From assembly GCA_036525795.1 (NCBI GenBank), contig DATCZS010000123.1:10717-74716 (forward strand): a stretch of DNA of 64,000 nucleotides. The letters run 5' to 3'. Under the pieces are notes generated by a model. That model was not told the DNA's origin. It saw only the letters and a list, made by a program, of their open reading frames with translations, and did no database searches. Numbering within the stretch: the stretch's first letter is position 1; each line of letters opens with the position of its first letter. A program made the position numbers and the translations under genes. This DNA is from Acidimicrobiia bacterium. GTDB lineage: Bacteria > Actinomycetota > Acidimicrobiia > Spongiisociales > ZC4RG35. Positions 8,483-51,454 of the stretch are shown piece by piece.

Positions 8483-8564
8483 ACAAGAGGCTAATCGGGC
8501 GGCAGGAGTGCCTCGACGCACCGGCGCTGCCGCGAACCCCGGTTCCGGTCGGTGACCTCCGAGG

Positions 8565-10750: not shown

Positions 10751-10807
10751 CGGAGAGGAGAGTAGGGAACCGGGCGACGAAGCGGCGAAGCGGCCCGCCG
10801 CCGCGCC

Positions 10808-11287: not shown

Positions 11288-11353
11288 CGTGCGGGTTCAC
11301 TCCGTGATGCGGGCCGCCTGATCATGCCGCCCGGCATTGGCTCAGGCAAGTCC

Positions 11354-32584: not shown

Positions 32585-33054
32585 CAGGCCCCACCCCCTT
32601 CGATGCGTTCGGCGGCGAGAAGGACGCCCTCGACGATCTTGACGTAGCCGGTGCAGCGGCACAGGTTCCCGGCCAGAGCCTCTCGCACCTCGCGTTCGGT
32701 TGGATGTGGAACGCGATCGAGCAGCTCGGCCGCCGTCAGGATGATCCCGGGGGTGCAGAACCCGCATTGGATCCCGCCGGTGTCGAGCAGCGCCGACTGC
32801 AGCGGATGCAGCCCTTCGTCGCCCGCCAGTGATTCGACCGTCGTCACCCGGCGACCATCGACCTGGGCGGCGAACAGCAAACACGAGGTCACGGCCCGGC
32901 CGTCGACCAGCACCGCACACGTCCCGCAGTCGCCGTGGGCACACCCGTTCTTGACCCCGGCGAAGCCGCGCTCGCGCAACATCTCCATGAGCGTGGCACC
33001 CGGATGCACCTCGGCCTCGATGGCCAGTCCGTTGACCGTCAGCGAGATCCTCAT
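32584..33054 (-). CDS. Xanthine dehydrogenase-family (2Fe-2S)-binding small subunit (set 1)
   Basis: Plant-type ferredoxin Cys cluster CAHGDCGTC plus QCGFCTPG and CRCTGY. Confidence 0.88.
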   Translation of the reverse strand: MRISLTVNGLAIEAEVHPGATLMEMLRERGFAGVKNGCAHGDCGTCAVLVDGRAVTSCLLFAAQVDGRRVTTVESLAGDEGLHPLQSALLDTGGIQCGFCTPGIILTAAELLDRVPHPTEREVREALAGNLCRCTGYVKIVEGVLLAAERIEGGGA

Positions 33055-33899: not shown

Positions 33900-35387
33900 T
33901 CATCCTCCTCGCACACGCCGATTGAACTCGCCGATCAGATGGTCGATCTCGTCGACCTGACCCTGCACGGTGGTCCAGTAGTCGGGGTCGTGCCACTGGG
34001 CGTCGAGCTCGGCCGTCTCGCGCCCCTGCTGCTCGATCCACGTGAAGTACTTGAGATCGTGGATGCGTCTGCGGTCCCAGTGATCGAGCTCCCGCATGTG
34101 ATCCGTGCTCAGACCCATCACCCAACGACCATATGCCACCTCGGCATCGGTGGCGGTGAATTCCCCGCGGTCGGCGTTCATCTCGGCGAGCCTGCTCCGG
34201 TACATGTCGATGGAATCCGTCGCCATCGTCAGGACCACGTCGGTCGGGCCGAGCTCGAACCACCGTGCGAACTTGATGGCGCCGATCAGGTTGGCCACCG
34301 ACGAGATCCCCAGCTCGGGCAGCCGGGCGATCACCTCGTCGCCGACACCGTGACTCGCGAGGCACTCGACGCCGGCAGGCTCGTTGAACAGCCGGACCAG
34401 CGACATCGGACCTTCGTCGTCGATGGCGATCACGACGTCGGTGTTCTTGACGTTGTGGATCCAGGGCACGTGCTTGTCGCCGATGCCCTCGATCCGATGG
34501 TCGCCGTGTCCCGAATAGAGGAGGGTCGGACACTGGAGGGCCTCACCGGCGGCGATCAGCGATCCCGGCCAGCGTTGCTTGAGCCGGTCACCCGATCCGA
34601 TCGTGCCGGCCGAACCGGTCGTCAGCACCACCCCCCGGTAGCGGTCACCGGGGCGCATCGCCTCCTCGACCACCTCGATCATGGCGCTCCCCGTGACCTC
34701 GTAGTGCCACAGGTAGTTCCCCAGTTCGTCGAACTGGTTGAAGATCACGACGTCCTCCCCGGAGACCCGCATCCGGTTGCACTCGTCGAAGATCTCCTTC
34801 ACGTTGGACTCGGTGCCCGGGGTGGTCACGATCTCTCCCGCCACCGACTCGAGCCAGTCGAATCGCTCCCGGCTCATGCCTTCGGGAAGAATCGCGACGG
34901 ACTCGCACGCCAGCAGATTCGCGTCGTACGCCCCGCCCCGGCAGTAGTTGCCGGTCGACGGCCACACCGACTTCTGACTCGTCGGATCGAACTGCCCCGT
35001 CACGAGCCGGGGAACCAGACAGCCGAAGGCGGCGCCCACCTTGTGGGCGCCCGTGGGGAACCACTTGCCGACCAGGGTGATGATCCTCGCATCCACCCCG
35101 GTGAGAGAGGGGGGAAACTCGATGGTGTTGACCGGCCCGAACGCGCCGCCGGTGGCGACCGGCTCGTTGTGCCAGTTGATGCGGAACAGGTTGAGCGGAT
35201 CCAGATCCCACAAGCCCAGTCCACCCAGCCTCCCGGTCACCTCTGGCGGAATCGACGCGGGGTCGCGCATCTGCTCGAACGTCGGGACCACGATGTCGCG
35301 TTCGCCTGCCCGCCGGACGGCACGGTCGAGTGCGTCGGGTCTGATCGTCAGGTCGATCCCCCGGTTCCATCGGGCGGCGGCGGTCAT
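33900..35387 (-). CDS. PLP-dependent fold-type II enzyme (Trp-synthase-beta-like, GAHK lysine motif), specificity unknown
   Basis: 495 aa. PTGAHKVGAAF resembles the TrpB HTGAHK PLP-lysine region, and a Gly-rich GSAGTIGSG loop is present. Its ATG overlaps the stop of the upstream threonine-synthase-like gene. Confidence 0.6.
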   Translation of the reverse strand: MTAAARWNRGIDLTIRPDALDRAVRRAGERDIVVPTFEQMRDPASIPPEVTGRLGGLGLWDLDPLNLFRINWHNEPVATGGAFGPVNTIEFPPSLTGVDARIITLVGKWFPTGAHKVGAAFGCLVPRLVTGQFDPTSQKSVWPSTGNYCRGGAYDANLLACESVAILPEGMSRERFDWLESVAGEIVTTPGTESNVKEIFDECNRMRVSGEDVVIFNQFDELGNYLWHYEVTGSAMIEVVEEAMRPGDRYRGVVLTTGSAGTIGSGDRLKQRWPGSLIAAGEALQCPTLLYSGHGDHRIEGIGDKHVPWIHNVKNTDVVIAIDDEGPMSLVRLFNEPAGVECLASHGVGDEVIARLPELGISSVANLIGAIKFARWFELGPTDVVLTMATDSIDMYRSRLAEMNADRGEFTATDAEVAYGRWVMGLSTDHMRELDHWDRRRIHDLKYFTWIEQQGRETAELDAQWHDPDYWTTVQGQVDEIDHLIGEFNRRVRGG

Positions 35388-36674: not shown

Positions 36675-37622
36675 TCATGGCGTGATCCGCGTCCCGGTGT
36701 GGCCGGCCAGGGCTCTGTCGATCTGATCGGGACTGGTGATGATGGCCTGAGACCCCCCGCCTTCCAGGAAGTCGACGACCGCCTCGATCTTGGGGGCCAT
36801 GCTTCCCGGACGGAAGTGCCGCCCTTCCGCCAGGCGACGCTTCGCCTCGTCGAGGGTGAGGTGGTCGACCCACCGCTGATCGGGGGTCCCGAAGTCGAGC
36901 GCAACGCGTTCCACCGAGGTCGAGATCAACAGGAGGTCTGCGGCGATCTCCCTGGCGAGCAAGGCAGAGGCCCGGTCTTTGTCGATCACGGCCGGAACTC
37001 CCCGCAGGTTGCCTGCCCCGTCGGACACGACCGGAATGCCGCCGCCCCCACAGGCGATCACCACGAACCCGCCGTCGAGAAGGAACCGGATCGCCTCGAT
37101 CTCCACGATTCTCATCGGCAGCGGAGATGCGACCACGCGCCGCCATCCCCGCCCCGCGTCCTCCACCACCTCCCAGCCGTCCATCCGGGCCCTCGTCTCG
37201 GCCTCTTGGGCCGTCAGGAACGAGCCGATCGGCTTGGACGGCAGACGGAAGGCCGGATCGTCCGGGTCGACCTCCACCTGGGTGACGACGGTGACGGCCT
37301 CCTTGGCGATGCCAAGACGCCGAAAGTCACCGACCAGGTTCTGCTGAAGCAGATAGCCGATCGCCCCTTGTGTGTCCGCCCCGCACACGTCGAGCGGCAC
37401 CTCGTGCAGCTCGTTGCGCGCCAGTTCCGAGCGGCGCAGGATGAATCCGATCTGGGGCCCGTTGCCGTGGGTGATCACCACCTCACATCCGTGGGCAACG
37501 AGATTGGCGATGTGATGATCCGTCTCGGCCGCGGCCAGGTACTGGTCCTCGACCGTCTGGTGCTCCGGATCGGTGATGAGGCTGTTGCCTCCGATCGCCA
37601 CCACCACCCGCTGATGTTCCAT
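36675..37622 (-). CDS. arcC: Carbamate kinase
   Basis: MEHQRVVVAIGGN N-terminus and an amino-acid-kinase fold of 315 aa with GGGGIPVV. Confidence 0.85.
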   Translation of the reverse strand: MEHQRVVVAIGGNSLITDPEHQTVEDQYLAAAETDHHIANLVAHGCEVVITHGNGPQIGFILRRSELARNELHEVPLDVCGADTQGAIGYLLQQNLVGDFRRLGIAKEAVTVVTQVEVDPDDPAFRLPSKPIGSFLTAQEAETRARMDGWEVVEDAGRGWRRVVASPLPMRIVEIEAIRFLLDGGFVVIACGGGGIPVVSDGAGNLRGVPAVIDKDRASALLAREIAADLLLISTSVERVALDFGTPDQRWVDHLTLDEAKRRLAEGRHFRPGSMAPKIEAVVDFLEGGGSQAIITSPDQIDRALAGHTGTRITP

Positions 37623-37681
37623 CTCCTCGCTCGCTCCCTCCTCTTCTCCGACACCCGACACCGCCCGCCTCCGGAGCGGGC

Positions 37682-38656
37682 TCACATGGTGAGGGCCATC
37701 ACGGCCTTCTGGACGTGGAGGCGGTTCTCCGCCTGGTCGTAGACGGCGCTCTGCGGGCCGTCGATCACGGTGTCGGTCACCTCGATGTTGCGGTCGGCGG
37801 GCAGCGGGTGCATGTAGATCGCGCCCGGGTCGGCCAGCGCCATCCGCTCCGTGTCGGTGATCCAGTCCTGGTATCTCGCACCGATCGCGGCGGACTCGGC
37901 CTCGTCGGCGGTGGCGAGCATCGCTCCCCACGACTTGGCGTAGACGACGTCTGCGCCCCGCATCCCCGCTGCGAAGTCCTCCACGACCTCGAACCCCCCT
38001 CCTGCCCGTTTGGCGTTCTCGGCCGCCTGATCCATGACGTCGTCCATGAGCGCGAACTCGGGAGGCCGGGTGAGGCGCACATCCATTCCGAACCGCGTGG
38101 CGAGGAGGATCAGGCTCTGCGGCACCGAGAGCGGCTTCTGGTAGCTGGAGGCGTACGCATAGCTGACGTCCAGCGTCACCCGGCGGGGATCCCCCTTCTT
38201 CTCGATGATCGTCATCAGGTCGGCCAGCGCCTGGAACGGATGGAACCAATCGCACTGCATGTTGAGGACCGGGACGCGCGACGCCGCCGCCACGTCCCGG
38301 ATGTACCCGTTTCCCACCCCCCAGTCGACCTGTCGTATGGCGATGCCGTCGTTGTAACGGCCGAGGATCTCTCCGATCTCCTTGGCGGTGTCGCCATGAG
38401 CGATCTGGGTCGTCTTCGACTCGATGAACTGGGCGTGACCGCCCAGCTGTGCCATGCCCGCCTCGAAGCTGGCCCTCGTCCGCGTCGACGAGAAGAAGAA
38501 CAGCATTGCGAGCACCTTGTCACGAAGGATCGGGTGGGCCTCGCCGAGAGCCCTCCGGCGCTTGAGATCGAATGCCACCTCCAGAACCGAGTCGAGCTCG
38601 TCCTTGGTCCACTCCTGGGTGGTGATCATGTCGCGCCCGCGCAAGCCGGTCTGCAT
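37682..38656 (-). CDS. YgeW-type carbamoyltransferase (unknown-substrate branch of the OTC/ATC superfamily)
   Basis: STRTR, HPFQ and HPLP motifs. Extended identity to E. coli YgeW segments from memory (SYQKPLSVPQ...TRFGMDV, VVYAKSWG, YMHPLPAD). Confidence 0.75.
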   Translation of the reverse strand: MQTGLRGRDMITTQEWTKDELDSVLEVAFDLKRRRALGEAHPILRDKVLAMLFFFSSTRTRASFEAGMAQLGGHAQFIESKTTQIAHGDTAKEIGEILGRYNDGIAIRQVDWGVGNGYIRDVAAASRVPVLNMQCDWFHPFQALADLMTIIEKKGDPRRVTLDVSYAYASSYQKPLSVPQSLILLATRFGMDVRLTRPPEFALMDDVMDQAAENAKRAGGGFEVVEDFAAGMRGADVVYAKSWGAMLATADEAESAAIGARYQDWITDTERMALADPGAIYMHPLPADRNIEVTDTVIDGPQSAVYDQAENRLHVQKAVMALTM

Positions 38657-38664
38657 CGCTCACC

Positions 38665-39621
38665 TCACTCCATCGCGCCCATGATCAGGGCGAGGAGGCC
38701 CATTCGCATGACGACCCCGTAGTACGCCTCCTGCCAGTAGCGGGCGTGCCGGGTGGCATCGACGTCCGGGGGAAGCTCGTCCATCCGCGGGAGCGAATGG
38801 AGGATGATCGAGTGGCTCTGGGCCTTCTCGGAGAGGAGTGCCCGCGTGACCCGATAGTTGTCCGGGGTGTTCCCCACCGAGCCGTCGCCGCGTTCTTCGC
38901 GGCTCGCCGTGTAATCGGCCTGGACGACCGGCTCCATGTAGATGACGTCGGCTTCTCCGATGGCATCGGCCACGTGCTCGGCCCGCTCGATCCGCACGTT
39001 GAGGGCGTCCATCTCGGCCAGGAACTCCTCGGTCGGCCCCATGTCGTCGGGACACACATAGATGATCTTCGAGTCGAACTGGCTCATCGCGTAGCCGAGA
39101 GAATGCATCGTGCGCATGCGCCAGTCGCCGACCGCCAGGAAGGTGAGCCCGTCGACCGTGCCCAGTTCCCGGCGTGTCGTGTACAGGTCGGTGAGCACCT
39201 GGGTGGGATGCTCTCCCCACCCGTCCCCTCCGTTGATCACGGGAACACTCGACCAGCGGGCGGCTTCGTGAGGCGCTCCCTGCTGGAAATGGCGCATCAC
39301 GATCGCATCCCCGTAGAACTCGAGCATGTGGACGGTGTCCTTGATCGACTCCTGGTAGAAGTCGCCTGCCCTGGTCATCTTCGGGTCGGCGAACCCGCAC
39401 ACGTGCCCGCCCAGCCGGTGCATCGCCGCCTCGTGGGCAAGGCGGGTCCGGGTGGATGGCTGATAGAAGGCGGTGACCAGCGTCTTCTCGGCGAGCAGAT
39501 CCGTGTTCCGCCGTTCCCGCGCGATCGGCTCGAGCTCGTCGCACGCCTCGAAGACGTGTTCGAACTCGGCCCGCTCGAAGCCGTTCAGCGACAGGATGTC
39601 CCGCCCGGCGAAGCTCCTCAT
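38665..39621 (-). CDS. Aspartate-carbamoyltransferase-like (PyrB-like) carbamoyltransferase
   Basis: STRTR, HPTQ and HSLPR motifs; 318 aa. It sits in a catabolic gene context rather than a pyr operon. Confidence 0.7.
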   Translation of the reverse strand: MRSFAGRDILSLNGFERAEFEHVFEACDELEPIARERRNTDLLAEKTLVTAFYQPSTRTRLAHEAAMHRLGGHVCGFADPKMTRAGDFYQESIKDTVHMLEFYGDAIVMRHFQQGAPHEAARWSSVPVINGGDGWGEHPTQVLTDLYTTRRELGTVDGLTFLAVGDWRMRTMHSLGYAMSQFDSKIIYVCPDDMGPTEEFLAEMDALNVRIERAEHVADAIGEADVIYMEPVVQADYTASREERGDGSVGNTPDNYRVTRALLSEKAQSHSIILHSLPRMDELPPDVDATRHARYWQEAYYGVVMRMGLLALIMGAME

Positions 39622-39766: not shown

Positions 39767-40615
39767 GTGACGCTTGACCCCGCAACCGGGGACCTGTTGG
39801 GAGTAGGTTCCCTTGCGATGGACATCGCCAGACCGAGGGGCCTCGACGAGGCCCTGGCCGCCCTCGCCGCCTCTCCCTCAGCGACGTTGCTGGCGGGAGG
39901 AACCGACCTGATGGTCGACGTCAACCTCGCGCACCGCCGCCCTGAAGAGGTGATCGCACTCCGCAGGGTGCCCGAACTGGCCGAGATGGCCCCTGCGTTC
40001 ATCGGGGCGGGGGTCACGTTTGCCCGCCTGGAGGGCTCGCCCCATGCCGCCCTCGCCGAACTCGCCCGCACGGTCGGGTCGCCGCAGATCCGGGCGGCGG
40101 GCACCATCGGGGGGAACCTGGGCACGGCCAGCCCGGCCGGCGACTCGCTGCCCTGGCTGGCGGCGCTCGACGCCACCGTCGTGCTCGCCTCGGTCGACGG
40201 TGAGCGCCGGGCGAGATGGGACGAGTTCTTCGTCGGCCCCAAGCGGACGGCGAGGCGCCCCGGCGAGTTGATCGTCGGCGTCGAACTGCCGGATCGCCGC
40301 CCCGTGCGCGAGGCGTTTGCGAAGGTCGGGATACGCCAGGCGATGGTCATCGCCACCGTGTCGTGCTGTGTGGCCCGATTCGACGACGGCGAGATCCGGG
40401 TGGCGCTCGGAGCCGTCGGACCCACCGTGCTCCGTGCCCGGCGGGCAGAGGCCTTCCTCGCCGACCGGGCCATCACATCAGACGAGGACCTCGCCGCCTT
40501 CGCCCGAATGGTCGCAGACGAAGTCCGGCCGATCACAGACCACCGATCGACGGAGGCCTACCGCCGCCACGCGGCAGGGGTGATCGCCCGGCGAACACTG
40601 GAGCGAGTGATGTGA
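39767..40615 (+). CDS. Xanthine dehydrogenase-family FAD-binding subunit (set 2)
   Basis: LLAGGTDL and GTIGGNL motifs. The true start may be the internal Met. Confidence 0.8.
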   Translation: MTLDPATGDLLGVGSLAMDIARPRGLDEALAALAASPSATLLAGGTDLMVDVNLAHRRPEEVIALRRVPELAEMAPAFIGAGVTFARLEGSPHAALAELARTVGSPQIRAAGTIGGNLGTASPAGDSLPWLAALDATVVLASVDGERRARWDEFFVGPKRTARRPGELIVGVELPDRRPVREAFAKVGIRQAMVIATVSCCVARFDDGEIRVALGAVGPTVLRARRAEAFLADRAITSDEDLAAFARMVADEVRPITDHRSTEAYRRHAAGVIARRTLERVM

Positions 40616-41082
40616 TCATCGAACTCACCGTCAACGGGGAACGGAGGTCCGTCCAGGTGGACGGCTGGGAGAGCCTCCTGTGGGTGCTGCGTGAGCAGCT
40701 CGGTCTGCCCGGATCCAAGCCTGCCTGCGAGCAGGGTGAGTGCGGAGCCTGCTCGGTGATCCTGGACGGCGACCTGGTGTGCAGCTGTCTCGTGATGGCC
40801 GCGGACGCCGAAGCCGGCACGGTCGTCACCGTGGAAGGCCTCGGGACCGCAGAGGACCTGCATCCGGTGCAGGCGGCGTTTCACGCCCACGGCGCGGTGC
40901 AGTGCGGGTTCTGCACGCCCGGGCTGGTCGTCGCCGCCGCCCACCTGCTCGAGCATGCCAGGAACCCTTCGATGGAGGACATCCGCGAGGCGCTGTCAGG
41001 CAACATCTGTCGATGCACCGGGTACGGCTCGGTGCTCAGGGCGGTCGCCTCGGTCGTCGCCGACCGGGAGGAGACGCCGTGA
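40612..41082 (+). CDS. Xanthine dehydrogenase-family (2Fe-2S)-binding subunit (set 2)
   Basis: GTG start overlapping the upstream stop (GTGA). Motifs CEQGECGAC, QCGFCTPG and CRCTGY. Confidence 0.85.
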   Translation: MIIELTVNGERRSVQVDGWESLLWVLREQLGLPGSKPACEQGECGACSVILDGDLVCSCLVMAADAEAGTVVTVEGLGTAEDLHPVQAAFHAHGAVQCGFCTPGLVVAAAHLLEHARNPSMEDIREALSGNICRCTGYGSVLRAVASVVADREETP

Positions 41083-43304
41083 CCACGTCGGTCGGCGAGC
41101 GGCGAAAGGTGTCCGGCGGGGTCGGCGAGCCGGTGCTCCGACCAGATGGCATCCCCAAGGTCACCGGGGCCTTCGAGTATGTGAACGACCTCCATGCGGA
41201 CGGGATGCTGTGGGCCGTGACGCGTCGGGCACACGCCGCTCACGCCCGCATCGTCCGCCTCGACACCACTGCGGCGAGGACCATGCCGGGGGTTGTCGAC
41301 GTCATCACCGTCGACGACGTGGCCGGTCACCGCTATCAGGGCCAGATCGTCACCGACCAGCCCGTGCTCGCCGAAGCCGAGATCCGCCATTGGGGTGAGG
41401 CGGTGGCGGTGGTGGCCGCCGAGACACGGGAACAGGCGCGGCGGGCCGCCGAGGCGATAGATCTCGAACTCGAGGCCCTGCCCGCCGTCACCGACCTCGA
41501 GGCCGCGCTCGAGCAGGGGGCGATCTTCCGGGCGATCACGGTCCGTCACGGCGACCAGGACCGCCACGGCGAGGTGGTGGTGGAAGGACGCTACGAGGTG
41601 GGGATCCAGGACCAGGCCCCGCTGGGGACCGAGGCGGGGCTGGCCGTTCCGGACGGCGTCGGTGGTGTCGACGTCTGGGGTCCCACCCAGTGGACACACG
41701 TCGACCGCCGTCAACTCGCGGCCTGTCTCGGCCTCGACGAGTCGGCGGTCCGCGTCCACTCGGTGGGCCTGGGCGGAGCGTTTGGCGCCCGCGAGGATCT
41801 CTCGGTCCAGACCCACCTGGCCATGCTCGCCCTCCGCACGGGACGTCCGGTCAAGATGGCGTTCGACCGCACCGAGAGCTTCGCCGCCCACGTCAAGCGA
41901 CACGGAGCGGTGATGGAGTACCGCCACGAGGCAGACGCCGACGGGACGCTGGTGCGGGTCGACGCCCGGCTGCTGCTCGATTCGGGGGCCTACCACATGA
42001 CCTCCGACGCCGTGATCGCCAACTCCGCCTACTTCGCGGTCGGCCCCTACCGCTGTGAGACCACCTCCGTCGACGCCTGGGCACTGCGCACCAACCATCC
42101 ACCCGCTGGAGCCATGCGCGGGTTCGGGGCCAACCAGCCGTGCTTCGCGGCCGAGGCCCAGATGGACCGCCTTGCAGCCGCCCTCGGAATGGATCCGGTC
42201 GAACTGCGCCTGCGCAACGCCTTGGGCCGTGGAGACACCCTCCCGACCACCGGCCAGCTCATCGAATACCCGCTCCCCACCGCCGAGGTGATCCGCTCGG
42301 TGGCCGCCATCCCGCTACCCGACCCCGAGGACCGGAGCGACGTACGCCTCCTCCCTGGAGGCACGGGCCGGACCACCGGCCGCGGCCACGTCCGGCGCGG
42401 CGTGGGCTACGCCGTCGGCATCAAGAACCTCGAGTTCTCGGAGGGTTTCGACGACTTCGCCGAGGCCGAAGTCGAGCTCACCGCCGCAGGGGCGGTGATC
42501 CACACCGCCGCCATCGAGGTCGGTCAGGGCCTGGTGACCGCCCTCACCCAGATCGCCCGGTCGGCGCTTGGCATCGAGTCGGTGACCGTGGACTTCGACC
42601 ACACGGGCCGGATCGGGTCGGCCGGATCGACGTCGGCATCCCGTCAAACCCAGATGAGCGGCGGTGCCGTGCTGCGGGCGGCGCAGGCGGTGCGGGCGGC
42701 CGTCCTCGACCGCCACGGCGCCGACGACCTCACAGACGAAGGCGTGTGGCGGAACGGGGAGCTGGTGGCATCGCTCGCCGCCGTCGTCGGCGACGGTCCG
42801 GTCGCCGAGCGAGTGCGGTTCAGGCACCCCGGGACCGATACCCCAGACGAGTTCGGACAGGGCAAGCTCCACGTCGACTTCTGCGTTGCGGCCCACAGGG
42901 CGATCGTCGACGTCGACCCCGAGCTCGGGCTGGTGCGGGTGGTACGAATCGACACCGCCCAGGACGTCGGCCGGGCGCTCAACCCCCTCTCCGTGCTCGG
43001 CCAGATCGAAGGCGGCATCGCCCAGGGCATGGGCCTGGCCATCATGGAGGAGCTGGTCGTCGACGGCGGCATCGTCCGCAACCCCACGTTCACCGACTAC
43101 CTGCTGCCCACCACCCTCGACATGCCAGACGTCGAGGCGGTGCTGGTCGAGGAACCCAGCCCCTGGGGGCCGTTCGGGGCCAAGGGTTTCGCCGAGCTCC
43201 CGACCGTCTCATCGACGCCGGCGGTGGTGGCGGCGCTGCGGGCCGCCACGGGCATGGCGCTGAACCGGGTGCCGGTTCGACCCCAGGACATCGTCGGTCT
43301 CTGA
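41079..43304 (+). CDS. Xanthine dehydrogenase-family molybdopterin-binding subunit (set 2)
   Basis: GTG start overlapping the upstream stop. GGAFGARE and AMRGFGANQ motifs; about 741 aa. Confidence 0.82.
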   Translation: MTTSVGERRKVSGGVGEPVLRPDGIPKVTGAFEYVNDLHADGMLWAVTRRAHAAHARIVRLDTTAARTMPGVVDVITVDDVAGHRYQGQIVTDQPVLAEAEIRHWGEAVAVVAAETREQARRAAEAIDLELEALPAVTDLEAALEQGAIFRAITVRHGDQDRHGEVVVEGRYEVGIQDQAPLGTEAGLAVPDGVGGVDVWGPTQWTHVDRRQLAACLGLDESAVRVHSVGLGGAFGAREDLSVQTHLAMLALRTGRPVKMAFDRTESFAAHVKRHGAVMEYRHEADADGTLVRVDARLLLDSGAYHMTSDAVIANSAYFAVGPYRCETTSVDAWALRTNHPPAGAMRGFGANQPCFAAEAQMDRLAAALGMDPVELRLRNALGRGDTLPTTGQLIEYPLPTAEVIRSVAAIPLPDPEDRSDVRLLPGGTGRTTGRGHVRRGVGYAVGIKNLEFSEGFDDFAEAEVELTAAGAVIHTAAIEVGQGLVTALTQIARSALGIESVTVDFDHTGRIGSAGSTSASRQTQMSGGAVLRAAQAVRAAVLDRHGADDLTDEGVWRNGELVASLAAVVGDGPVAERVRFRHPGTDTPDEFGQGKLHVDFCVAAHRAIVDVDPELGLVRVVRIDTAQDVGRALNPLSVLGQIEGGIAQGMGLAIMEELVVDGGIVRNPTFTDYLLPTTLDMPDVEAVLVEEPSPWGPFGAKGFAELPTVSSTPAVVAALRAATGMALNRVPVRPQDIVGL

Positions 43305-43319: not shown

Positions 43320-44528
43320 TTGGATTTCTCGATCACGCCCGAACTGCACGAGACGCTGCGCGCGGTCCGCGAGTTCATCGACAGAGAGGTGATCCCCCTC
43401 GAGGCCCGGCTCCTGACCGAGGGGTTCGAGGCGACGGCGGGGGACCTGGGGCATCTGAGGGAGCGGGCGAAGACCCTGGGACTGTGGGCCCCTGCCATCC
43501 CCCGCGAGGCGGGCGGAGCCGGACTGGGGCTGATCGACTTCGCCCATCTCAGTGAAGAACTGGGGCGGACGCCGGCCGGCCACTACGTGTTCAACGCCCA
43601 GGCGCCCGACATCGGCAACATGGAGCTGCTGCTGCGCCACGGGTCCGATGCGCAGCGTCGCCGATGGCTCGAGCCCCTCGTGGCCGGCGAGATCCGGAGC
43701 TGTTTCTCGATGACCGAGCCGGGGCGGGCCGGGTCGAACCCCGCCTGGCTCTCTGCCACCGCCGAACGGGACGGCGACCAGTACGTGCTCAACGGCGACA
43801 AGTGGTTCACCTCGGCCGCCGACGGGGCCGCCTTCACCATCGCCATGATGGTCACGAACCCCCAGGCGGAGAGCCGCTACGCCCGCGCCAGCCAGATCAT
43901 CGTCCCCACCGACACTCCCGGGTTCACCCGCGTTCGCAACACCCCGGTGATGGGCGAGGCGGGTTCTGGTTGGGCCAGCCACTCCGAGGTGAGCTTCACC
44001 GACTGTCGGGTCCCGGTCACCAACCGGATCGGCGATGAGGGCGCCGGATTCGTCCTCGCCCAGGAGCGCCTGGGCCCGGGTCGCATCCACCACTGCATGC
44101 GATGGCTGGGCATCTGCGAACGGTCGCTCGACCTGATGTGCGAGTACGCGGTCAATCGGGAGCTGGCGCCGGGCCGGCCACTGGCGGATCAGCAGGTGGT
44201 GCAGCACTGGATCGCCGACAGCCGGACCGAGATCGACGCCGCCCGGCTCATGGTGCTGCGTGCCGCATGGAAGATCGAGCGGGAAGGCAACCACGCCGCC
44301 CGCACCGAGGTCTCGCAGATCAAGTTCTTCGTGGCCAACACGCTCCAGCGGGTGATCGACCGGGCGCTCCAGGTGCACGGCGGCATGGGGATGACCGACT
44401 ACACGCCGCTGGCGTGGTGGTACCGGCACGAACGGGCCGCCCGGATCTACGACGGCGCCGACGAGGTCCACCGCAACGTCGTCGCCCGTCACGAGCTCGG
44501 CAGGCACGGGTACGGGCGGAAGAGCTGA
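43320..44528 (+). CDS. Acyl-CoA dehydrogenase family protein
   Basis: ACAD fold of 402 aa with C-terminal YDGADEVHR. Confidence 0.75.
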   Translation: MDFSITPELHETLRAVREFIDREVIPLEARLLTEGFEATAGDLGHLRERAKTLGLWAPAIPREAGGAGLGLIDFAHLSEELGRTPAGHYVFNAQAPDIGNMELLLRHGSDAQRRRWLEPLVAGEIRSCFSMTEPGRAGSNPAWLSATAERDGDQYVLNGDKWFTSAADGAAFTIAMMVTNPQAESRYARASQIIVPTDTPGFTRVRNTPVMGEAGSGWASHSEVSFTDCRVPVTNRIGDEGAGFVLAQERLGPGRIHHCMRWLGICERSLDLMCEYAVNRELAPGRPLADQQVVQHWIADSRTEIDAARLMVLRAAWKIEREGNHAARTEVSQIKFFVANTLQRVIDRALQVHGGMGMTDYTPLAWWYRHERAARIYDGADEVHRNVVARHELGRHGYGRKS

Positions 44529-44532
44529 ACCG

Positions 44533-45477
44533 GTGCCGATTCCCCTCCTGTTGCTCCTCGCCCTGCCTGCGTCCGGCAAGTCGGAGCTCCGCCGCTATCT
44601 CGACCTGCTGGACGAGCACGACCGTCTCGAGCTGGGGCTGGGACCCACCGTGCAGCTCGACGACTACCCGTACGTGGCGCTGATGCGGGCGATCTCCCGG
44701 AGATTGCTGGCCGGCGGGCGCCACCCGGTGTTCTTCGCCTCGGACGATCTGCCGTTCGCCGACCCGCGGGATTGGCTCACGCTGATCCACCTGCTCAACG
44801 AGGACCACCAATCGGTCGTCCAGGGAGCGACACTGCCAGACGATCCGGGCCGGTGGATCCTCGACCGTCTGGACAGGGCCCGGACCCTCGCCGGGGCTCC
44901 GGCCCTGACCGATGGGCTCCCCGGAGACGCAACGGCTGTCCTGGTCGACGCGTGCAGGTCGCCAGGATCCGACATCGCCGCCGCCCTCGTCAGCCGGCGA
45001 TGCACCGAGGGTTCGACGATCGTCGTGGAATTCGCCCGGGGTGGCCCCCGGGGCTCGGCGATGCCGCTCCCCCATCCCCACGGGTACGTTCACTCGCTCG
45101 CCGCGCTCTCGCCGGCGATCCTCGACCACGCCGCGGCCCTCTACATCCGGGTTACCCCCGAACAGAGCCGCGCGAAGAACCTGGAGCGGGCGCGCCCGGA
45201 CGGCGAAGGATCGATTCTCCACCACGGCGTACCCGAGACCGTCATGGACCGCGACTACGGCACCGACGACTTCGTCTGGCTGCTCGAGACGTCCGATCGG
45301 CGCGGCACGATCCGCATCGAGAGGGACGAACGCGCCTTTCGCCTGCCCGCCGCAGTGTTCGACAACCGGGAGGACCTCACGACCTTCCTGCGCGACGACC
45401 CTGAGACCTGGCCTGCGGAAATGGTGACAGCACTGCATGCCAGGCTGCGGGCGGCACTCGCAGCCCTTCGGCCGTGA
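44533..45477 (+). CDS. Hypothetical P-loop protein (Walker A-like ALPASGKS)
   Basis: The N-terminus LLLALPASGKSELRRYL resembles kinase P-loops. 314 aa, no family assigned. Confidence 0.4.
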   Translation: MPIPLLLLLALPASGKSELRRYLDLLDEHDRLELGLGPTVQLDDYPYVALMRAISRRLLAGGRHPVFFASDDLPFADPRDWLTLIHLLNEDHQSVVQGATLPDDPGRWILDRLDRARTLAGAPALTDGLPGDATAVLVDACRSPGSDIAAALVSRRCTEGSTIVVEFARGGPRGSAMPLPHPHGYVHSLAALSPAILDHAAALYIRVTPEQSRAKNLERARPDGEGSILHHGVPETVMDRDYGTDDFVWLLETSDRRGTIRIERDERAFRLPAAVFDNREDLTTFLRDDPETWPAEMVTALHARLRAALAALRP

Positions 45478-45492: not shown

Positions 45493-46866
45493 TCAACCGT
45501 CGACCAGCGAGCGGGATGCGGCGTTGTGCAGGACCGTCAGCCGTTCGGGGTCGATCGTCTCCACCTGTCCGGCGGTGACCACCGCCCGCCCGTGCACCCA
45601 GGTCTCGTCGACCTGAACAGGGGCGCACAGCATCAGCGCCGCCACGGGATCATGGAGCGCACCGGCGAATTCCACCCGGTCGAGCTTCACGGCGAAGAAA
45701 TCGGCCGCCTTCCCCACCTCGAGCGAGCCGATATCGGGACGGCCCAGCACCGCCGCCCCTCCCCGGGTGGCGATCTCCAGTGCCTCGCGTGCCGGCATCA
45801 CCACTCCCGGTCCCCGGTCAGGCGCGGGCGCCGCCGCCAGCCGGGCGAGCAGCATCGCCTGCCGTGCCTCGCCCAGCAGGTGGCTGCCGTCGTTGGAGGC
45901 AGAACCGTCGACACCCAGACCGGTTCGCACGCCGGCGTCTCTGTACGCCCGCACCGGGGCGATGCCGGAAGAAAGGCGCATGTTGGACGAGGGGCAGTGC
46001 GCCACCCCGGTCCCGCTGGACGCCATCCGTCGGATGCCGCCGGCATCGACCCACACGCCGTGGGCGAACCACACCTCGTCGCCCAGCCAGCCCACCGACT
46101 CGGCGTAGTCGAGAGGCCGCATGCCGAACGACTCGAGGCAGAACCGCTCCTCGTCGATCGTCTCGGCGAGGTGGGTGTGCATCGTCACCCCGAAGGATCT
46201 GGCCACTTCGGCGGACGCGGCCATCACCTCGCGGGTCACCGAGAACGGCGAACAGGGAGCCACGACGATGCGGGTCATCGCCCCCGGTGCAGGATCGTGG
46301 AACTCGGTGATCACCCGAACGGTGTCGGCGAGGATGGCGTCTGCCTCCTCCACGACCGAGTCCGGCGGAAGACCGCCGTCGCTCTCCCCCAGGCTCATCG
46401 ACCCCCGGGATGCGTGAAGACGCAGACCCACCTGGCGGGCGGCCTCGATCTGGTCATCCAGCCGCGACCCGTTGGGAAACAGATACAGGTGGTCGGACGC
46501 GGTGGTGCAGCCGGACCGGGCCAGCTCGACCAGACCGAGCTGGGTCGACAGACGGATGTGATCGGGCGTCATCCGCGCCCAGATGGGATAGAGCGCCTTC
46601 AACCACTCGAACAGGCCGGCGTCCTGGGCGGCGGGAACCGCCCTCGTGAGCGTCTGGTAGAGGTGATGGTGGGTGTTGACGAGCCCGGGAGCCGCAACGT
46701 GGCCGGAGAGGTCGAGGACTTCGTCGGCAGAGGCGGGGAGCTCCGAAGTCGGTCCGACCGCTTCGATCCAGCCGTCACGGGCGAACAGCCCTCCGTCGAC
46801 GATCTCCCGACGATCGGCGTCCATCGTGACGAGGACGGCGGCATTCTTCACCAGCAGCGTCGACAT
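45493..46866 (-). CDS. Amidohydrolase, COG0402 type (guanine/8-oxoguanine deaminase/SsnA-like)
   Basis: HHHLYQT metal-binding motif near the N-terminus and an overall 457-aa amidohydrolase layout (MSTLLVKNAAVLVTMD...). Confidence 0.7.
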   Translation of the reverse strand: MSTLLVKNAAVLVTMDADRREIVDGGLFARDGWIEAVGPTSELPASADEVLDLSGHVAAPGLVNTHHHLYQTLTRAVPAAQDAGLFEWLKALYPIWARMTPDHIRLSTQLGLVELARSGCTTASDHLYLFPNGSRLDDQIEAARQVGLRLHASRGSMSLGESDGGLPPDSVVEEADAILADTVRVITEFHDPAPGAMTRIVVAPCSPFSVTREVMAASAEVARSFGVTMHTHLAETIDEERFCLESFGMRPLDYAESVGWLGDEVWFAHGVWVDAGGIRRMASSGTGVAHCPSSNMRLSSGIAPVRAYRDAGVRTGLGVDGSASNDGSHLLGEARQAMLLARLAAAPAPDRGPGVVMPAREALEIATRGGAAVLGRPDIGSLEVGKAADFFAVKLDRVEFAGALHDPVAALMLCAPVQVDETWVHGRAVVTAGQVETIDPERLTVLHNAASRSLVDG

Positions 46867-46968: not shown

Positions 46969-47451
46969 CTACAGCTTGTACCCGAACTGGCGGAGCAGGC
47001 CCTTCCGGGCCACGACATCCTCTTCGGTCTCGACCCCGAGCGGGGACCCGCCGTCGACCACCCCGATGATCCCCCTGCCCTGGTCGGTCTCGGCCACCAG
47101 CACCTCCACAGGATTGGCGGTGGCGCAGAAGATCCGACACACCTCCGGCACGGCTTTCACCGCGTTGAGCACGGACACCGGGAACCCGTTGCGAAGGAAG
47201 ACGATGAAGCTGTGGCCGGATCCGACGGCTACGGCATTGCGGACCGCCAGTTCGACGAGGTCGTCGGCGTTGCCCGAACGGCGCACCAGGCGCGGGCCGG
47301 ACGCCTCGCAGAAGGCGAGCCCGAATTCGAGCGAGCCGGACGATTGGGCGAGCACCTCGTGCAGGTCCTCCACCGTCTTGATGAAGTGGCTCTGCCCCAG
47401 GATCAGGTTGAGCTCTTCGGGGTTCTCGATCGGGACGGATTGGATCTCCAT
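46969..47451 (-). CDS. Adenosine-specific-kinase-like small protein (PF04008-like), tentative
   Basis: 160 aa. GQSHFIKTVEDLHE matches my recollection of this family. The family call is uncertain; the ORF itself is clean. Confidence 0.45.
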   Translation of the reverse strand: MEIQSVPIENPEELNLILGQSHFIKTVEDLHEVLAQSSGSLEFGLAFCEASGPRLVRRSGNADDLVELAVRNAVAVGSGHSFIVFLRNGFPVSVLNAVKAVPEVCRIFCATANPVEVLVAETDQGRGIIGVVDGGSPLGVETEEDVVARKGLLRQFGYKL

Positions 47452-47548: not shown

Positions 47549-48607
47549 TTGAGCCGAGAGACACAGAGCGGAGGTGTGTGCGTGGAGTCGTTTGCACGCG
47601 GGCTGCCGAAGGCCGAGTTGCACGTTCACATCGAGGGGACCCTCGAGCCGGAGATGGTGTTCGATCTGGCACGACGGAACCGGATGGAGCTCCGGTACGA
47701 CTCGATCGAGGCACTGCGGGCGGCATACGAGTTCACCGACCTCCAATCGTTCCTCGACGTCTACTACGAGGCGGCCGGCGTGCTGTTCGACACCGAGGAC
47801 TTCCACGACATGACGTGGGCGTATCTTCGGCGGGCGGCGGCAGACGGGGTCGCTCGCGCCGAGGTCTTCTTCGACCCCCAGACGCACACGGAGCGAGGGG
47901 TGCCGTTCGCCACGGTGGTCGAGGGGATCGGGTCGGCGCTCGACCGGGCCGAACTCGAGCTGGGCATGTCGACCGGCCTGATCCTGTGTTTCCTCCGCCA
48001 CCTTCCCGCCGAGAAGGCGATGGAGACCCTCCAACAGGCGGAGCCGCACCTGGACCGCCTCCTGGGGGTTGGACTCGACTCGTCCGAAGTGGGGTTCCCA
48101 CCCGAGTTGTTCGTCGATGCGTTCGGCCGGGCCCGTTCGCTCGGGCTCCGGGTGGTGGCCCACGCCGGGGAAGAGGGTCCTCCGGAGTACGTGTGGCAGG
48201 CCCTCGACCTCCTCGGCGCCGAACGGATCGAACACGGCGTCAGGAGCATGGAGGATCCGGCGCTCGTCGAACGGCTGGCACGGGACCGAGTTCCGCTCAC
48301 CGTATGTCCGCTCTCGAACGTGCGGCTGAAGGTGGTCGACCGCGCCGAGGACCACCCGCTGCGCAAGATGCTCGAGGCCGGGCTCAACGTCTCGATCAAC
48401 TCGGATGATCCCGCCTACTTCGGTGGCTACATCGGCGACGCCTACCTCCAAACCGCCCGGGCGCTGGATCTGTCGGAGGGACAACTGGCGACGGTCGCAC
48501 GCAACTCGCTCGAGGCCTGTTTCGTCTCCGACGCCGAACGGGCCGCCCTGACTGCGCGCCTCGACGACTACCTGGGCGCCCGCCCGGCGGGTGCCGAAGG
48601 GGAGTAG
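47549..48607 (+). CDS. add: Adenosine deaminase
   Basis: ELHVHIEG and SINSDDPA motifs. The true start may be a few codons downstream. Confidence 0.85.
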   Translation: MSRETQSGGVCVESFARGLPKAELHVHIEGTLEPEMVFDLARRNRMELRYDSIEALRAAYEFTDLQSFLDVYYEAAGVLFDTEDFHDMTWAYLRRAAADGVARAEVFFDPQTHTERGVPFATVVEGIGSALDRAELELGMSTGLILCFLRHLPAEKAMETLQQAEPHLDRLLGVGLDSSEVGFPPELFVDAFGRARSLGLRVVAHAGEEGPPEYVWQALDLLGAERIEHGVRSMEDPALVERLARDRVPLTVCPLSNVRLKVVDRAEDHPLRKMLEAGLNVSINSDDPAYFGGYIGDAYLQTARALDLSEGQLATVARNSLEACFVSDAERAALTARLDDYLGARPAGAEGE

Positions 48608-48609
48608 CG

Positions 48610-49635
48610 ATGTCTGCGATCACTCCGGGACTGGTGTGCGCCCATCATCACCTCTACTCGACGCTGGCCAGAGGCATGCCGCCTCCGCCGCGCACACCGC
48701 ATGGCTTCGGCGAGATCCTCGAACTCGTCTGGTGGAGGCTCGATACGGCCCTCGACCTCGAGATGATCAGATGGTCGGCGATGCTCGGGGCGCTGGAGGC
48801 TCTCGAACACGGGACCACCGCCATCGTCGACCACCACGAGTCCCCCAACGCCATCGAAGGGAGCCTGGAGGTGATTGCGGACGCCTGCGCCGAGGTCGGT
48901 GTGCGGGTCGTGTGCGCCTACGGAGTCACCGATCGTCACGGGCCAAACGGGGCACTGCGCGGACTCGAAGAGAACCGGCGGTTCATCGCAGGCGGAGGCC
49001 GGGGCCTGGTGGGGGTTCACGCCGCCTTCACCTGCACCGATGACACGCTGGTCGCAGCCGCCGAGATGGCGGCCGGGCTCGGAGTCGGGGTGCACATCCA
49101 TGTGTGCGAGGGCGAAATCGATCGAGAGGCCCCCGACCGCCTCCGGCGGCTCACCACAGACGATTGGGTGCTCGCCCACGGTGTCCACCTCTCCGAGGAG
49201 TCCGGACTGGCCGGGACCGTCGTGCACAACCCTCGATCGAACCTGAACAACGCCGTGGGCTACGCCCACCCTTCGCGATTCGCCAACCCCGTCGCCCTCG
49301 GATCGGACGGGATCGGCGCGGCGATGCTCGAGGAGTTCGGACTGGCCTACGTCCTGGCGCGCAGCCACGACATCACCACCGAACCCTCCACCGCCTGGCA
49401 GTGGCTCGAGAACGGCTGGCTCCTCGTCCCTGAGGCCCGGTCAGACGTCGTCGAATGGGGCTATGCGCCGATGGACCCCTGGCACGTGGCGTTCACCCCG
49501 GGGATCAGACCGCTGCGGATCACCGTCGACGAAGAAGTGGTGTTCGAGAACGGGCGTCCGACCCGCGTCGACGCATCCGAGATCAGGGCGAAGGCCGCCG
49601 AACAGGCCAGACGGCTGCATGCCCGACTGCTGTGA
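48610..49635 (+). CDS. Amidohydrolase family protein (short SsnA/chlorohydrolase-like, N-terminally truncated form)
   Basis: AHHHLYSTL metal-binding motif, 341 aa. Starts 3 nt after add. Confidence 0.6.
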   Translation: MSAITPGLVCAHHHLYSTLARGMPPPPRTPHGFGEILELVWWRLDTALDLEMIRWSAMLGALEALEHGTTAIVDHHESPNAIEGSLEVIADACAEVGVRVVCAYGVTDRHGPNGALRGLEENRRFIAGGGRGLVGVHAAFTCTDDTLVAAAEMAAGLGVGVHIHVCEGEIDREAPDRLRRLTTDDWVLAHGVHLSEESGLAGTVVHNPRSNLNNAVGYAHPSRFANPVALGSDGIGAAMLEEFGLAYVLARSHDITTEPSTAWQWLENGWLLVPEARSDVVEWGYAPMDPWHVAFTPGIRPLRITVDEEVVFENGRPTRVDASEIRAKAAEQARRLHARLL

Positions 49636-49645
49636 GGAGATCACG

Positions 49646-51454
49646 ATGAACCCGATGCATCGCGGCCCGCTGTCCCCCTATCCGCTCGAGGTCCTGCTCG
49701 GGCGGGTGGCGCATGAATGGGGGACCAGGCATCGGATCTTCGACCTCCCCACCGGCCGCTTCTACCACGCCGACCCGGCCCACGACCTCTCGATCCACCT
49801 CGGTGCTCGCAGCGCTTCCACCCCCCTGGGTCCGGCCGCAGGGCCCCACACCCAGCTCGCCCAGAACTTCGTGCTTGGGTGGCTGGCAGGCGCCCGGGTG
49901 TTCGAGGCCAAGACCGTGCAGGTCCTCGACGAGCTCGACATCGAACGACCGTGCATCGACATGGAGGCCGAAGGCTACAACGTCGAATGGAGCCAGGAGC
50001 TCACCCTCGAACAGTCGCTCCTGGAGTACGTCAAGGCCTGGATGATGCTCGATATCCTGCGCCGCTGGCCGGAGCTGTGGCCGATCGTGGGCCGCGTGCC
50101 GGGACCACACGTCTTCGACATGTCGGTGGGCTACGACCTCGCAGGGATCCGTTCGCCGCGGGTGGCCGAATTCATCAGGGGCATGCTGGATGCATCGGCG
50201 GTGATCGACGGGCTGCGATCGCACATCCCTGAGCCCTTCCAGCTCTTCCACGACCACTCCTTCGAGACCCAGCTCGTCACGGCCGCCACCGTCTCGACGT
50301 TCCACGGTTGCCCCCCTGACGAGATCGAGGCGATCGCCCGTCACCTGATGGACGACTACGGCCTTGACGTCGTCGTCAAGCTCAACCCGACCCTGCTCGG
50401 ATTCGACGACACGGCCCGCATCCTCCACGACAGGCTCGGATACGCCGGCGTCGAGCTCGACCCCGGCGCCTTCGCGGCCGATCTCCAGTTCGATCGCGCC
50501 ATCGCGATGATCCCCTCCCTCGCCGCCCACGCCGCCGAGCGGGGGCTCCGCTTCGGAATCAAGCTCACCAACACGCTCGTGGTGGCGAACCATCGCGGCA
50601 GGCTGCCAGGCGACCGGATGTACCTTTCCGGTCCGCCTCTCCACGTCATCGCCATGACGCTGCTCGACCGTCTCGTGGATGCCCTGCCCGGCGTCTTCGA
50701 CCTCGGCGAAGGCGACGGCGGCGTGGACGTGTCGTGGTCGGCCGGAGTCGACGCCGACAACTTCGCCGCGACCGCCGGTCTGGGACTCGGCCCGATCACT
50801 GCCTGCTCCCAGCTGCTCAAGCCGGGCGGCTACGGCCACCTGTCGGCGATGCTGAGGAAGCTCAACGAGGAGATGACGGCCGCCGCCATCCCCGACCTCG
50901 CCGGCTGGGTCGGCCATCAGCACGCCAGTGCCCGGCTGGCAGGTCATCGCGACGCCGTCGCCGCGTACGTCGCCTCCCTGGCCACCGCCGAAGGGGCGGC
51001 TCGATACGGCTCGACACGGGTGGCCCGCAGGCTCCGCCAGGTCGACCACGCCCTGGAGCTGTGGGGATGCGTGGCATGCAACGTGTGCGTGACGGTGTGC
51101 CCGAACGATGCCGTGCTCCACATCCGCACCCCCGAGACTCTGGGCGGCGTGTCAGACGCCAACTGGCAATACGTCGTGCTGGCCGAACTGTGCAACGAAT
51201 GCGGAAACTGCACGACCTTCTGCCCCGAAGACGGCGAACCCTGGCTGGTCAAGCCGAGGCTGTTCCTCGACGAGGGCCGCTTTGCGGCCGACCCGGACGG
51301 GAGACCGGCGTTCCTGGTGGAGGCCGGTGCCGGAGGCTTCGCGGTGACGGCCTCCGACGGGTTCGATTCCCACGCCGGCTCCCTGACCGCCCTCCTCAAC
51401 GACGATGAGGGATTGCCGTTCCGCCCGGAGACGCTGGAGGCGATCCTGGCCTGA
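49646..51454 (+). CDS. Dihydroorotate/dihydropyrimidine-dehydrogenase-family TIM-barrel flavoenzyme with C-terminal 2x[4Fe-4S] ferredoxin domain (PreA-like), about 100-aa N-terminal extension
   Basis: VVVKLNPTL and GIKLTNT DHOD-family motifs. Two CxxCxxCxxxCP clusters (CVACNVCVTVCP, CNECGNCTTFCP). A GAGGAG Shine-Dalgarno sits 6 nt before the ATG. Confidence 0.65.
   Translation: MNPMHRGPLSPYPLEVLLGRVAHEWGTRHRIFDLPTGRFYHADPAHDLSIHLGARSASTPLGPAAGPHTQLAQNFVLGWLAGARVFEAKTVQVLDELDIERPCIDMEAEGYNVEWSQELTLEQSLLEYVKAWMMLDILRRWPELWPIVGRVPGPHVFDMSVGYDLAGIRSPRVAEFIRGMLDASAVIDGLRSHIPEPFQLFHDHSFETQLVTAATVSTFHGCPPDEIEAIARHLMDDYGLDVVVKLNPTLLGFDDTARILHDRLGYAGVELDPGAFAADLQFDRAIAMIPSLAAHAAERGLRFGIKLTNTLVVANHRGRLPGDRMYLSGPPLHVIAMTLLDRLVDALPGVFDLGEGDGGVDVSWSAGVDADNFAATAGLGLGPITACSQLLKPGGYGHLSAMLRKLNEEMTAAAIPDLAGWVGHQHASARLAGHRDAVAAYVASLATAEGAARYGSTRVARRLRQVDHALELWGCVACNVCVTVCPNDAVLHIRTPETLGGVSDANWQYVVLAELCNECGNCTTFCPEDGEPWLVKPRLFLDEGRFAADPDGRPAFLVEAGAGGFAVTASDGFDSHAGSLTALLNDDEGLPFRPETLEAILA

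Follow-up and report, generated by a model that had tools for sequence, protein, structure and literature searches.

The protein of 602 amino acids (aa) encoded on the plus strand at 49646..51454 of a 64-kb stretch of an Acidimicrobiia metagenome-assembled genome (MAG; contig DATCZS010000123.1; the whole stretch is called the window below) is a short form of YgfK, termed mini-YgfK here, in which the catalytic domain and the C-terminal 2x[4Fe-4S] domain of the family are kept and the GltD-like module for flavin adenine dinucleotide (FAD) and NAD(P)H is absent. We favour the reading, with a probability of roughly 60%, that short YgfK is the catalytic core of a 2,8-dioxopurine reductase that works with an external donor such as ferredoxin and is coupled to a shortened SsnA amidohydrolase. 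The components of this reading differ in strength: a YgfK-type oxopurine reductase working together with SsnA is very probable and a donor other than intrinsic NAD(P)H is likely, while ferredoxin specifically, proposed by analogy with PydAc and UacX, has slightly less than an even chance.

The pathway itself, which does not depend on oxygen, is already known. It was worked out in 2025 in gut bacteria with the NAD(P)H-dependent, 1032-aa YgfK: XdhD forms 2,8-dioxopurine through 6-dehydroxylation of urate, and E. coli YgfK (DOPOR, IPR017701) is the NAD(P)H:2,8-dioxopurine (isoxanthine) reductase of this reductive urate pathway (PMC12507026 / bioRxiv 10.1101/2025.05.19.654654; bioRxiv 10.1101/2025.04.24.650524). 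In one of these studies (PMC12507026 or bioRxiv 10.1101/2025.04.24.650524) the YgfK product was detected only with SsnA present to hydrolyse the reduced ring. In C. difficile this step belongs to UacX, which is a member of PF01180, has no FAD domain and was assayed with reduced methyl viologen; reduced ferredoxin was proposed as its physiological donor (2025 YgfK studies). The FAD-less PydAc of C. chromiireducens uses reduced ferredoxin (PMC7332683). We found no mention of a YgfK form without NAD(P)H module in either of the 2025 studies or in the other literature searched, and the short form appears to be an undescribed, major and ancient branch of the family.

Family assignment and domain architecture

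In NCBIfam, the sole strong match of mini-YgfK is TIGR03315 'YgfK' (E=5.5e-127). The score of 424.6 bits is about half of the curated equivalog cut-off of 835.3 and remains below it since the match is confined to profile positions 5-398 and the C-terminus. The same pattern emerged when the proteins of the E. coli ygf/xdh region were compared with the window by tblastn: YgfK matches with aa 5-405 (39.6% identity) and aa 892-979 (40%), and its residues 406-891, the GltD-like Fer4_20/FAD/NAD(P)H module, have no match in the 64 kb. A Pfam scan of mini-YgfK revealed neither a Fer4_20 nor a Pyr_redox_2 domain and returned only the Fer4 family / 4Fe-4S dicluster domain at aa 475-529; DHO_dh (PF01180) gave no match even at E<=1. 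As the GltD-like module is absent, mini-YgfK should be unable to oxidise NAD(P)H itself.

The sequence-only reading had described a PreA-like Fe-S flavoenzyme of the dihydroorotate dehydrogenase (DHOD) and dihydropyrimidine dehydrogenase (DPD) family. The fold and the domain order, a barrel followed by 2x[4Fe-4S], agree with this description, whereas orthology to PreA has to be given up in favour of the YgfK family; mini-YgfK is neither a PreA nor a PyrD orthologue. Several details of that description hold: the DHOD-type motifs VVVKLNPTL (aa 242-250) and GIKLTNT (aa 304-310) are present, both C-terminal CxxCxxCxxxCP motifs are found at C475-P486 and C516-P527, with all eight Fe-S cysteines invariant in 59 homologues, and the claimed excess of about 200 aa over E. 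coli PreA (411 aa) amounts to 191 aa. The N-terminal extension had been overestimated: in a global profile alignment, residue 1 of PreA corresponds to residue 43 of mini-YgfK, which leaves about 42 aa instead of about 100, and the other ~150 extra residues lie in barrel insertions, the 62-aa helical linker and a C-terminal domain of about 70 aa. The extension is common to full-length YgfK, as the alignment begins at residue 5. A check for an FAD/NAD site that might replace PreT had been suggested; no dinucleotide-binding motif was found there, and therefore it is no substitute for PreT.

Fold and active site

An AlphaFold2 model of mini-YgfK built from the 59 homologues reached a mean local confidence (pLDDT) of 91 and a predicted template modelling score (pTM) of 0.93. 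In a Foldseek search of the PDB, pig DPD ranked first and dihydroorotate dehydrogenases of classes 1 and 2 came next (prob 1.0, E 4e-9 to 1e-6, identity 12-15%). By hhalign, the alignment with E. coli PreA is collinear but weak (E ~1e-4 to 2e-5, probability ~55%). It pairs LGPAAGP of short YgfK with FCLSSSP of PreA, EAKTV with VFKTI, VVKLNPT with LAKMTPN, KLTNT with AAINT, YLSGPP with GYSGKA and SWSAGV with SGIGGI, so that the lysine of FKT/LKT, KxxPN, xNT, SG and GG/AG are collinear. The kinship with DPD and DHOD is hence visible at the level of fold and profile only.

The catalytic loop is different. NxSCP of PreA and DPD (NFSCP, 134-138 in PreA) is swapped for T-x-S-T-(F/M)-H-G-C-P-P throughout the YgfK family; mini-YgfK has T215-V-S217-T-F-H-G-C222-P (consensus T-L-S-T), and the loop is shorter than in PreA. 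Within the catalytic domain, 61 columns reach at least 90% conservation in the short as well as in the full-length class, and a single column is class-specific. This near-invariance across both classes speaks for a shared active site and a substrate of the same kind.

An enzyme acting on pyrimidines, either a PreA-type dihydropyrimidine or a PyrD-type dihydroorotate dehydrogenase, could explain the best structural matches and the motifs collinear with PreA. Nevertheless, we consider it highly improbable: the DHO_dh profile does not recognise the protein, identity to DPD and DHOD is 12-15% versus 40% to YgfK, the altered loop (TxSTFHGCP in place of NxSCP) is conserved family-wide, and the context in the window and in relatives is one of purine catabolism and not of pyrimidine biosynthesis.

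Distribution and phylogeny of the short form

The absence of the module is conserved. In a collection of 5.8 billion proteins, the best 120 matches of mini-YgfK are all 580-628 aa long and have Fer4 Pfam domains only; their public names are 'putative selenate reductase', 'glutamate synthase' or '4Fe-4S binding protein'. Across species-representative genomes, at least 595 genomic stretches encode relatives, the best 80 of which are from Acidimicrobiia (50-63% identity). At 37-45% identity, the matches listed include Elusimicrobiota, Gemmatimonadota, Acidobacteriota, Myxococcota, Planctomycetota, Verrucomicrobiota, Calditrichota, Bacteroidota and Alphaproteobacteria. Cultured carriers in the last of these groups include Pleomorphomonas carboxyditropha SVCO-16, with XDH and SsnA genes at its locus, and Rhodoplanes sp. 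SY1.

When the catalytic domain by itself served as query in an exhaustive phmmer search, 436 representatives of clusters at 50% identity were found at E<=1e-30. The GltD-like module is present in 64 of the best 150, and another 58 have no such module but do have the barrel and two Fe-S motifs; the rest, mostly <560 aa or without both Fe-S motifs, are probably fragments. In a midpoint-rooted neighbour-joining tree calculated from the catalytic domain, 56 short forms group by themselves, and 6 others fall together with 63 full-length proteins in a second clade. The short form is thus a deep and diverse clade and accounts for roughly half of the sampled family representatives. Some short-form variants are longer (640-790 aa); their linkers or tails are extended, and no recognisable extra domain was found in them. 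One protein of 1046 aa (P0144) is a short YgfK with a C-terminal fusion to a domain of the dihydrodipicolinate synthase-like DHDPS family. The acidimicrobial locus L017 (BS2bin.4) encodes a short YgfK at 3972-5708 (+) beside xanthine dehydrogenase (XDH), and then a short SsnA and a full-length YgfK with GltD module at 7121-11478 (-); therefore, both forms can coexist.

These data also bear on the idea of a decayed or truncated ygfK, be it a pseudogene or an assembly artefact, or of an enzyme that is correctly named selenate reductase or glutamate synthase in public records. The names themselves and the TIGR03315 score under the cut-off would fit. On the other hand, the open reading frame (ORF) is intact, its length is constant over hundreds of genomes, the clade is deep and separate, and the AlphaFold2 model keeps its confidence across the junction. 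YgfK neither requires selenate nor is stimulated by it (2025 YgfK studies), and mini-YgfK has no GltD domains that would justify the name glutamate synthase. We rate decay or either of these functions as the least probable of all explanations considered.

Gene, operon and purine-catabolic island

A GGAG stands ahead of the ATG start codon of mini-YgfK. As in the sequence-only reading, the gene begins 10 nt past the stop codon of the SsnA-like ORF 48610..49635, with adenosine deaminase directly upstream of the latter. The three genes form a co-directional run (47582-51454, +) with gaps of 2 and 10 nt. A public gene call gives the same 602-aa product (GCA_041563225.1, contig JBFFNK010000004.1), and an identical or near-identical public protein carries an Acidimicrobiia MAG name. 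Codon-position G+C is coding-like, with 0.86 at third positions (G+C of the window ~69%). A longer ORF from 49463 was rejected: its extra 61 aa overlap the 3' end of ssnA, are rich in Arg and Pro, and are missing in homologues and in the public gene call. Scans for riboswitches, promoters and terminators detected no Rfam element and no promoter-like or terminator-like site around the operon.

The partner SsnA is shortened as well. It aligns with aa 54-438 of E. coli SsnA at 33% identity, keeps the HxH metal motif and misses the N-terminal ~53 residues. This short form is conserved, with relatives of 318-356 aa. As it starts at about residue 54 of E. coli SsnA, it is without the N-terminal strands of the accessory beta-sandwich. 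A frameshift between the adenosine deaminase and SsnA genes, considered since the tblastn match ran 14 codons 5' of the SsnA ATG, was rejected: the 341-aa form has its own ribosome-binding site and is kept in 15 cluster members and relatives. The short SsnA is the probable partner that hydrolyses the reduced purine.

The operon is part of a full purine-catabolic island (Table 1). The earlier suggestion of reductive purine or pyrimidine ring degradation thus survives in its purine half, with a ring-opening amidohydrolase in the operon itself. Of the two molybdenum (Mo) enzymes encoded here, the XdhD-like one retains a glutamate at the position of E. coli XdhD Glu606 (LGEG) and the PucD-like one does not. 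Two genes between XDH and the 8-oxoguanine deaminase (43320-45477, +) encode an acyl-CoA dehydrogenase-family protein and a 314-aa ORF without Pfam or NCBIfam match; neither recurs in any of 85 related loci.

Table 1. Domains of mini-YgfK and genes of the surrounding purine-catabolic island (window positions)
Feature	Position	Strand	Evidence or remark
Catalytic domain (aa 1-406), predicted FMN-binding (beta/alpha)8 barrel of the DPD/DHOD fold, including the 42-aa N-terminal extension	49646..50863	+	AlphaFold2, Foldseek, hhalign, conservation
62-aa helical linker (aa 407-468), in place of the ~486-aa GltD-like module of full-length YgfK	50864..51049	+	gap between tblastn segments; modelled helices 397-459; no Pfam domain
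2x[4Fe-4S] ferredoxin-type domain (aa 469-530); motifs at nt 51068-51103 and 51191-51226	51050..51235	+	Pfam, motifs, 40% identity to YgfK 892-979
C-terminal small alpha/beta domain (aa 531-602)	51236..51451	+	pLDDT ~90; YgfK C-terminal match covers part
Nucleoside hydrolase	27514-28446
XdhD-like fused [2Fe-2S]/Mo subunit	30266-33061	-	41% identity to E. coli XdhD over full length; Pfam domains
YgfM-like FAD subunit	33051-33896	-
CysK/CBS-like pyridoxal phosphate (PLP) enzyme	33900-35387	-
ThrC-like PLP enzyme	35384-~36690	-
Carbamate kinase	~36684-37649	-	49% identity to YqeA
YgeW-like carbamoyltransferase	37682-38656	-
ATCase-like carbamoyltransferase	38665-39621	-
Three-subunit PucD-like XDH: FAD 39818-40615, [2Fe-2S] 40612-41082, Mo (PucD-like) 41079-43304	39818-43304	+
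8-oxoguanine deaminase-type amidohydrolase (product would be urate)	45493-46866	-	NF006055, 673 bits vs cut-off 532
PF04008 protein ('adenosine-specific kinase')	46969-47451	-	divergent from the adenosine deaminase-SsnA-mini-YgfK operon
Adenosine deaminase, first gene of the operon	47582..48607	+
Short SsnA-like amidohydrolase, 341 aa	48610..49635	+	NCBIfam SsnA E=3e-72, 243.7 bits vs cut-off 444

Neighbourhoods in related loci

To these 85 loci, each with +/-10 kb, the E. coli and window proteins were mapped. SsnA is found in 57 and lies immediately upstream of mini-YgfK in about 25. The XDH-type Mo subunit occurs in 59 and the [2Fe-2S] subunit in 53-54, the FAD subunit in 14-19; in compact clusters, [2Fe-2S]-Mo (Fer2-Mo), SsnA and mini-YgfK genes are contiguous and partly overlapping. 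The Mo enzyme beside short YgfK resembles the PucD-like type in most of these loci, usually with the FAD subunit missing. Among the downstream genes, YgeW (27-28 loci), carbamate kinase (22) and YgeY (21) recur, and HyuA is present in seven. CysK/CBS-like (40) and ThrC-like (29) PLP enzymes accompany short YgfK far more often than the YgeX-type diaminopropionate ammonia-lyase (9), and this pair may replace YgeX or handle albizziin/diaminopropionate differently.

De novo clustering of the unassigned ORFs added further recurrent neighbours: a CN-hydrolase similar to N-carbamoylputrescine amidase/carbamoylase (21/85), often directly 3' of short YgfK (e.g. L015, 10-972), an M20 carbamoyl-amino-acid amidohydrolase resembling allantoate amidohydrolase (12/85), parts of BMP-type ABC transporters and a small putative regulator. 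The CN-hydrolase and the M20 enzyme are probably alternative decarbamoylases. In the Acidimicrobiia clusters of the window (36684-39621, -) and of L004, L005, L008 and L033, a YgeW-like and an ATCase-like carbamoyltransferase of the OTCase family stand together with carbamate kinase and without HyuA and YgeY, which suggests that both ureido groups are cleaved phosphorolytically there.

Electron donor

The earlier statement that no GltD/PreT-like partner is adjacent was confirmed and can be widened to the complete window, in which tblastn with the middle module of E. coli YgfK and with YgfT found no such sequence and a motif scan found neither a Rossmann GxGxxG-type motif of the GltD class nor ferredoxin-type motifs beyond the two of mini-YgfK. 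GltD-like sequences are present in 2/85 related loci (L017, L070). More generally, neither a conserved ferredoxin nor a flavodoxin or GltD-like neighbour was found in the window and the 85 loci by tblastn, motif scans and de novo clustering.

These results weigh on the possibility that mini-YgfK is the PreA-like half of a split NAD(P)H-dependent reductase, with the PreT/GltD-like half encoded at another place in the genome. Precedents are E. coli PreT/PreA and the fused YgfK, where the same barrel type is normally paired with a GltD-like module. Besides, the verrucomicrobial locus L070 has a divergent GltD/YgfT-like ORF (4354-6837, -) about 300 nt upstream of short YgfK (7141-9066, +), the sole PreT/PreA-like split arrangement among the 85 loci. 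However, of the two GltD-like sequences within +/-10 kb, the one in L017 belongs to the separate full-length YgfK, and the other pathway genes are tightly clustered, and the 64-kb window has no GltD-like gene. A split enzyme is therefore unlikely.

A direct coupling to the molybdoenzymes is about as doubtful, if anything a shade more so. Electrons from hypoxanthine/xanthine hydroxylation, or via the YgfM/XdhB FAD subunit, would reach short YgfK through Fe-S clusters and make the redox balance independent of free NAD(P)H. In favour of it, the XDH-type Mo and [2Fe-2S] subunits are the sole recurrent redox proteins beside mini-YgfK, the overlapping genes of the compact clusters point in the same direction, and by simple arithmetic hypoxanthine to urate would give four electrons, the number that urate to dihydro-2,8-dioxopurine would take. 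Nevertheless, a shared pathway explains the co-location equally well, and E. coli YgfK and XdhD-YgfM, assayed apart, each worked with their own donor.

Proposed function

Under our favoured reading of an externally fed 2,8-dioxopurine reductase, purine nucleosides and bases would be converted to urate via adenosine deaminase, nucleoside hydrolase, 8-oxoguanine deaminase and the PucD-like XDH, and the XdhD-type molybdoenzyme would strip the 6-oxo group from urate to give 2,8-dioxopurine. An external low-potential one-electron donor, most likely ferredoxin, would then feed the distal and subsequently the proximal [4Fe-4S] cluster and finally the flavin mononucleotide (FMN) in the DPD-like barrel, a path proposed because of the domain order and the analogy with DPD. 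The FMN would transfer a hydride to the purine and thereby dearomatise it, with a conserved cysteine, either C222 of the shortened active-site loop or C103, as likely proton donor. Co-transcribed short SsnA would hydrolyse the reduced ring at once and so draw an otherwise unfavourable reduction forward, and the two carbamoyltransferases together with carbamate kinase would afterwards collect the ureido groups.

Several points weigh against this reading. FMN binding is predicted from the fold and a weak profile similarity: a profile search of the PDB by sequence with the mini-YgfK family returned ferredoxin domains only and neither DPD nor DHOD, and the silence of the DHO_dh Pfam model points the same way. 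The substrate is deduced from residue conservation and gene context, and in some loci, e.g. L046, L066 and L087, mini-YgfK has no recognisable pathway neighbour. Neither HyuA nor YgeY was matched in the window by tblastn, and YgeX was matched weakly; with HyuA and YgeY absent, the later steps are not those of the characterised pathway, and another intermediate may be involved as well. Concerning the donor, KorAB had been taken as a hint to ferredoxin. The distance of about 5 kb is right (KorA starts ~4.6 kb downstream), whereas linkage is not conserved, as KorA/KorB occur in 0/85 related loci; this adjacency is unique to the window and weak evidence for a ferredoxin link. Another CxxCxxCxxxCP ORF exists in 3/85 loci and no ferredoxin gene is co-located in 82/85, and therefore the context does not support a ferredoxin donor; nor does it favour any other specific donor. 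Moreover, several hosts belong to groups generally held to be aerobic or facultative, in which a low-potential ferredoxin pool is less obvious.

A more far-reaching idea, which we put forward as speculative and rather improbable, is that short YgfK and FAD-less XDH-type molybdoenzymes constitute an NAD(P)H-independent, self-balancing module for purine dearomatisation. The four electrons from hypoxanthine to urate would be relayed by Fe-S clusters, directly or via one dedicated carrier, to urate 6-dehydroxylation and 2,8-dioxopurine reduction, and the downstream branch would use two carbamoyltransferases and the ThrC-like/CysK-like PLP pair instead of HyuA, YgeY and YgeX. If true, Acidimicrobiia, Gemmatimonadota, Acidobacteriota, Myxococcota and others could run a 'gut-anaerobe' purine pathway with ATP from carbamoyl phosphate.

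Recognising the short form would have practical consequences. As it is misnamed in databases ('glutamate synthase', 'selenate reductase', '4Fe-4S protein') and scores under the curated family cut-off, surveys via IPR017701/TIGR03315 or BLAST with 80% coverage would miss it. With the short form included, the reductive urate pathway would reach many soil, sediment and water phyla, and a concrete electron-donor question is raised. In addition, a catalytic core of ~600 aa is a smaller target for structural work or for the engineering of urate-degrading strains.

Comparison with known systems

Among the closest known systems is E. coli YgfK, with which mini-YgfK shares a homologous catalytic domain (40% identity, including the 61 near-invariant columns), the C-terminal 2x[4Fe-4S] domain, and a gene that adjoins ssnA and is co-located with xdhD-type genes. 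In contrast to it, mini-YgfK lacks the GltD-like module of ~486 aa and with it an intrinsic NAD(P)H site, and it falls into a separate deep clade.

PreA (with PreT) and domains IV-V of mammalian DPD have the same order of a barrel and 2x[4Fe-4S], collinear FMN-site motifs and the best-matching folds in the PDB. Mini-YgfK differs from them in its low identity (12-15%), the catalytic loop, the 42-aa N-terminal extension, the barrel insertions, the 62-aa linker and the 70-aa C-terminal domain, and it has no PreT partner and a purine context.

With regard to the proposed electron supply, UacX and PydAc are close counterparts, as they likewise combine a barrel, predicted to bind FMN in mini-YgfK, with Fe-S clusters and have no FAD/NAD(P)H domain. 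The gene of UacX, like that of mini-YgfK, stands beside SsnA, and UacX fills the pathway step proposed for mini-YgfK. However, both are PF01180 (PydA/DHO_dh) proteins of strict anaerobes, whereas mini-YgfK is undetected by PF01180 and is of the YgfK lineage, with Acidimicrobiia and other environmental phyla as its main carriers.

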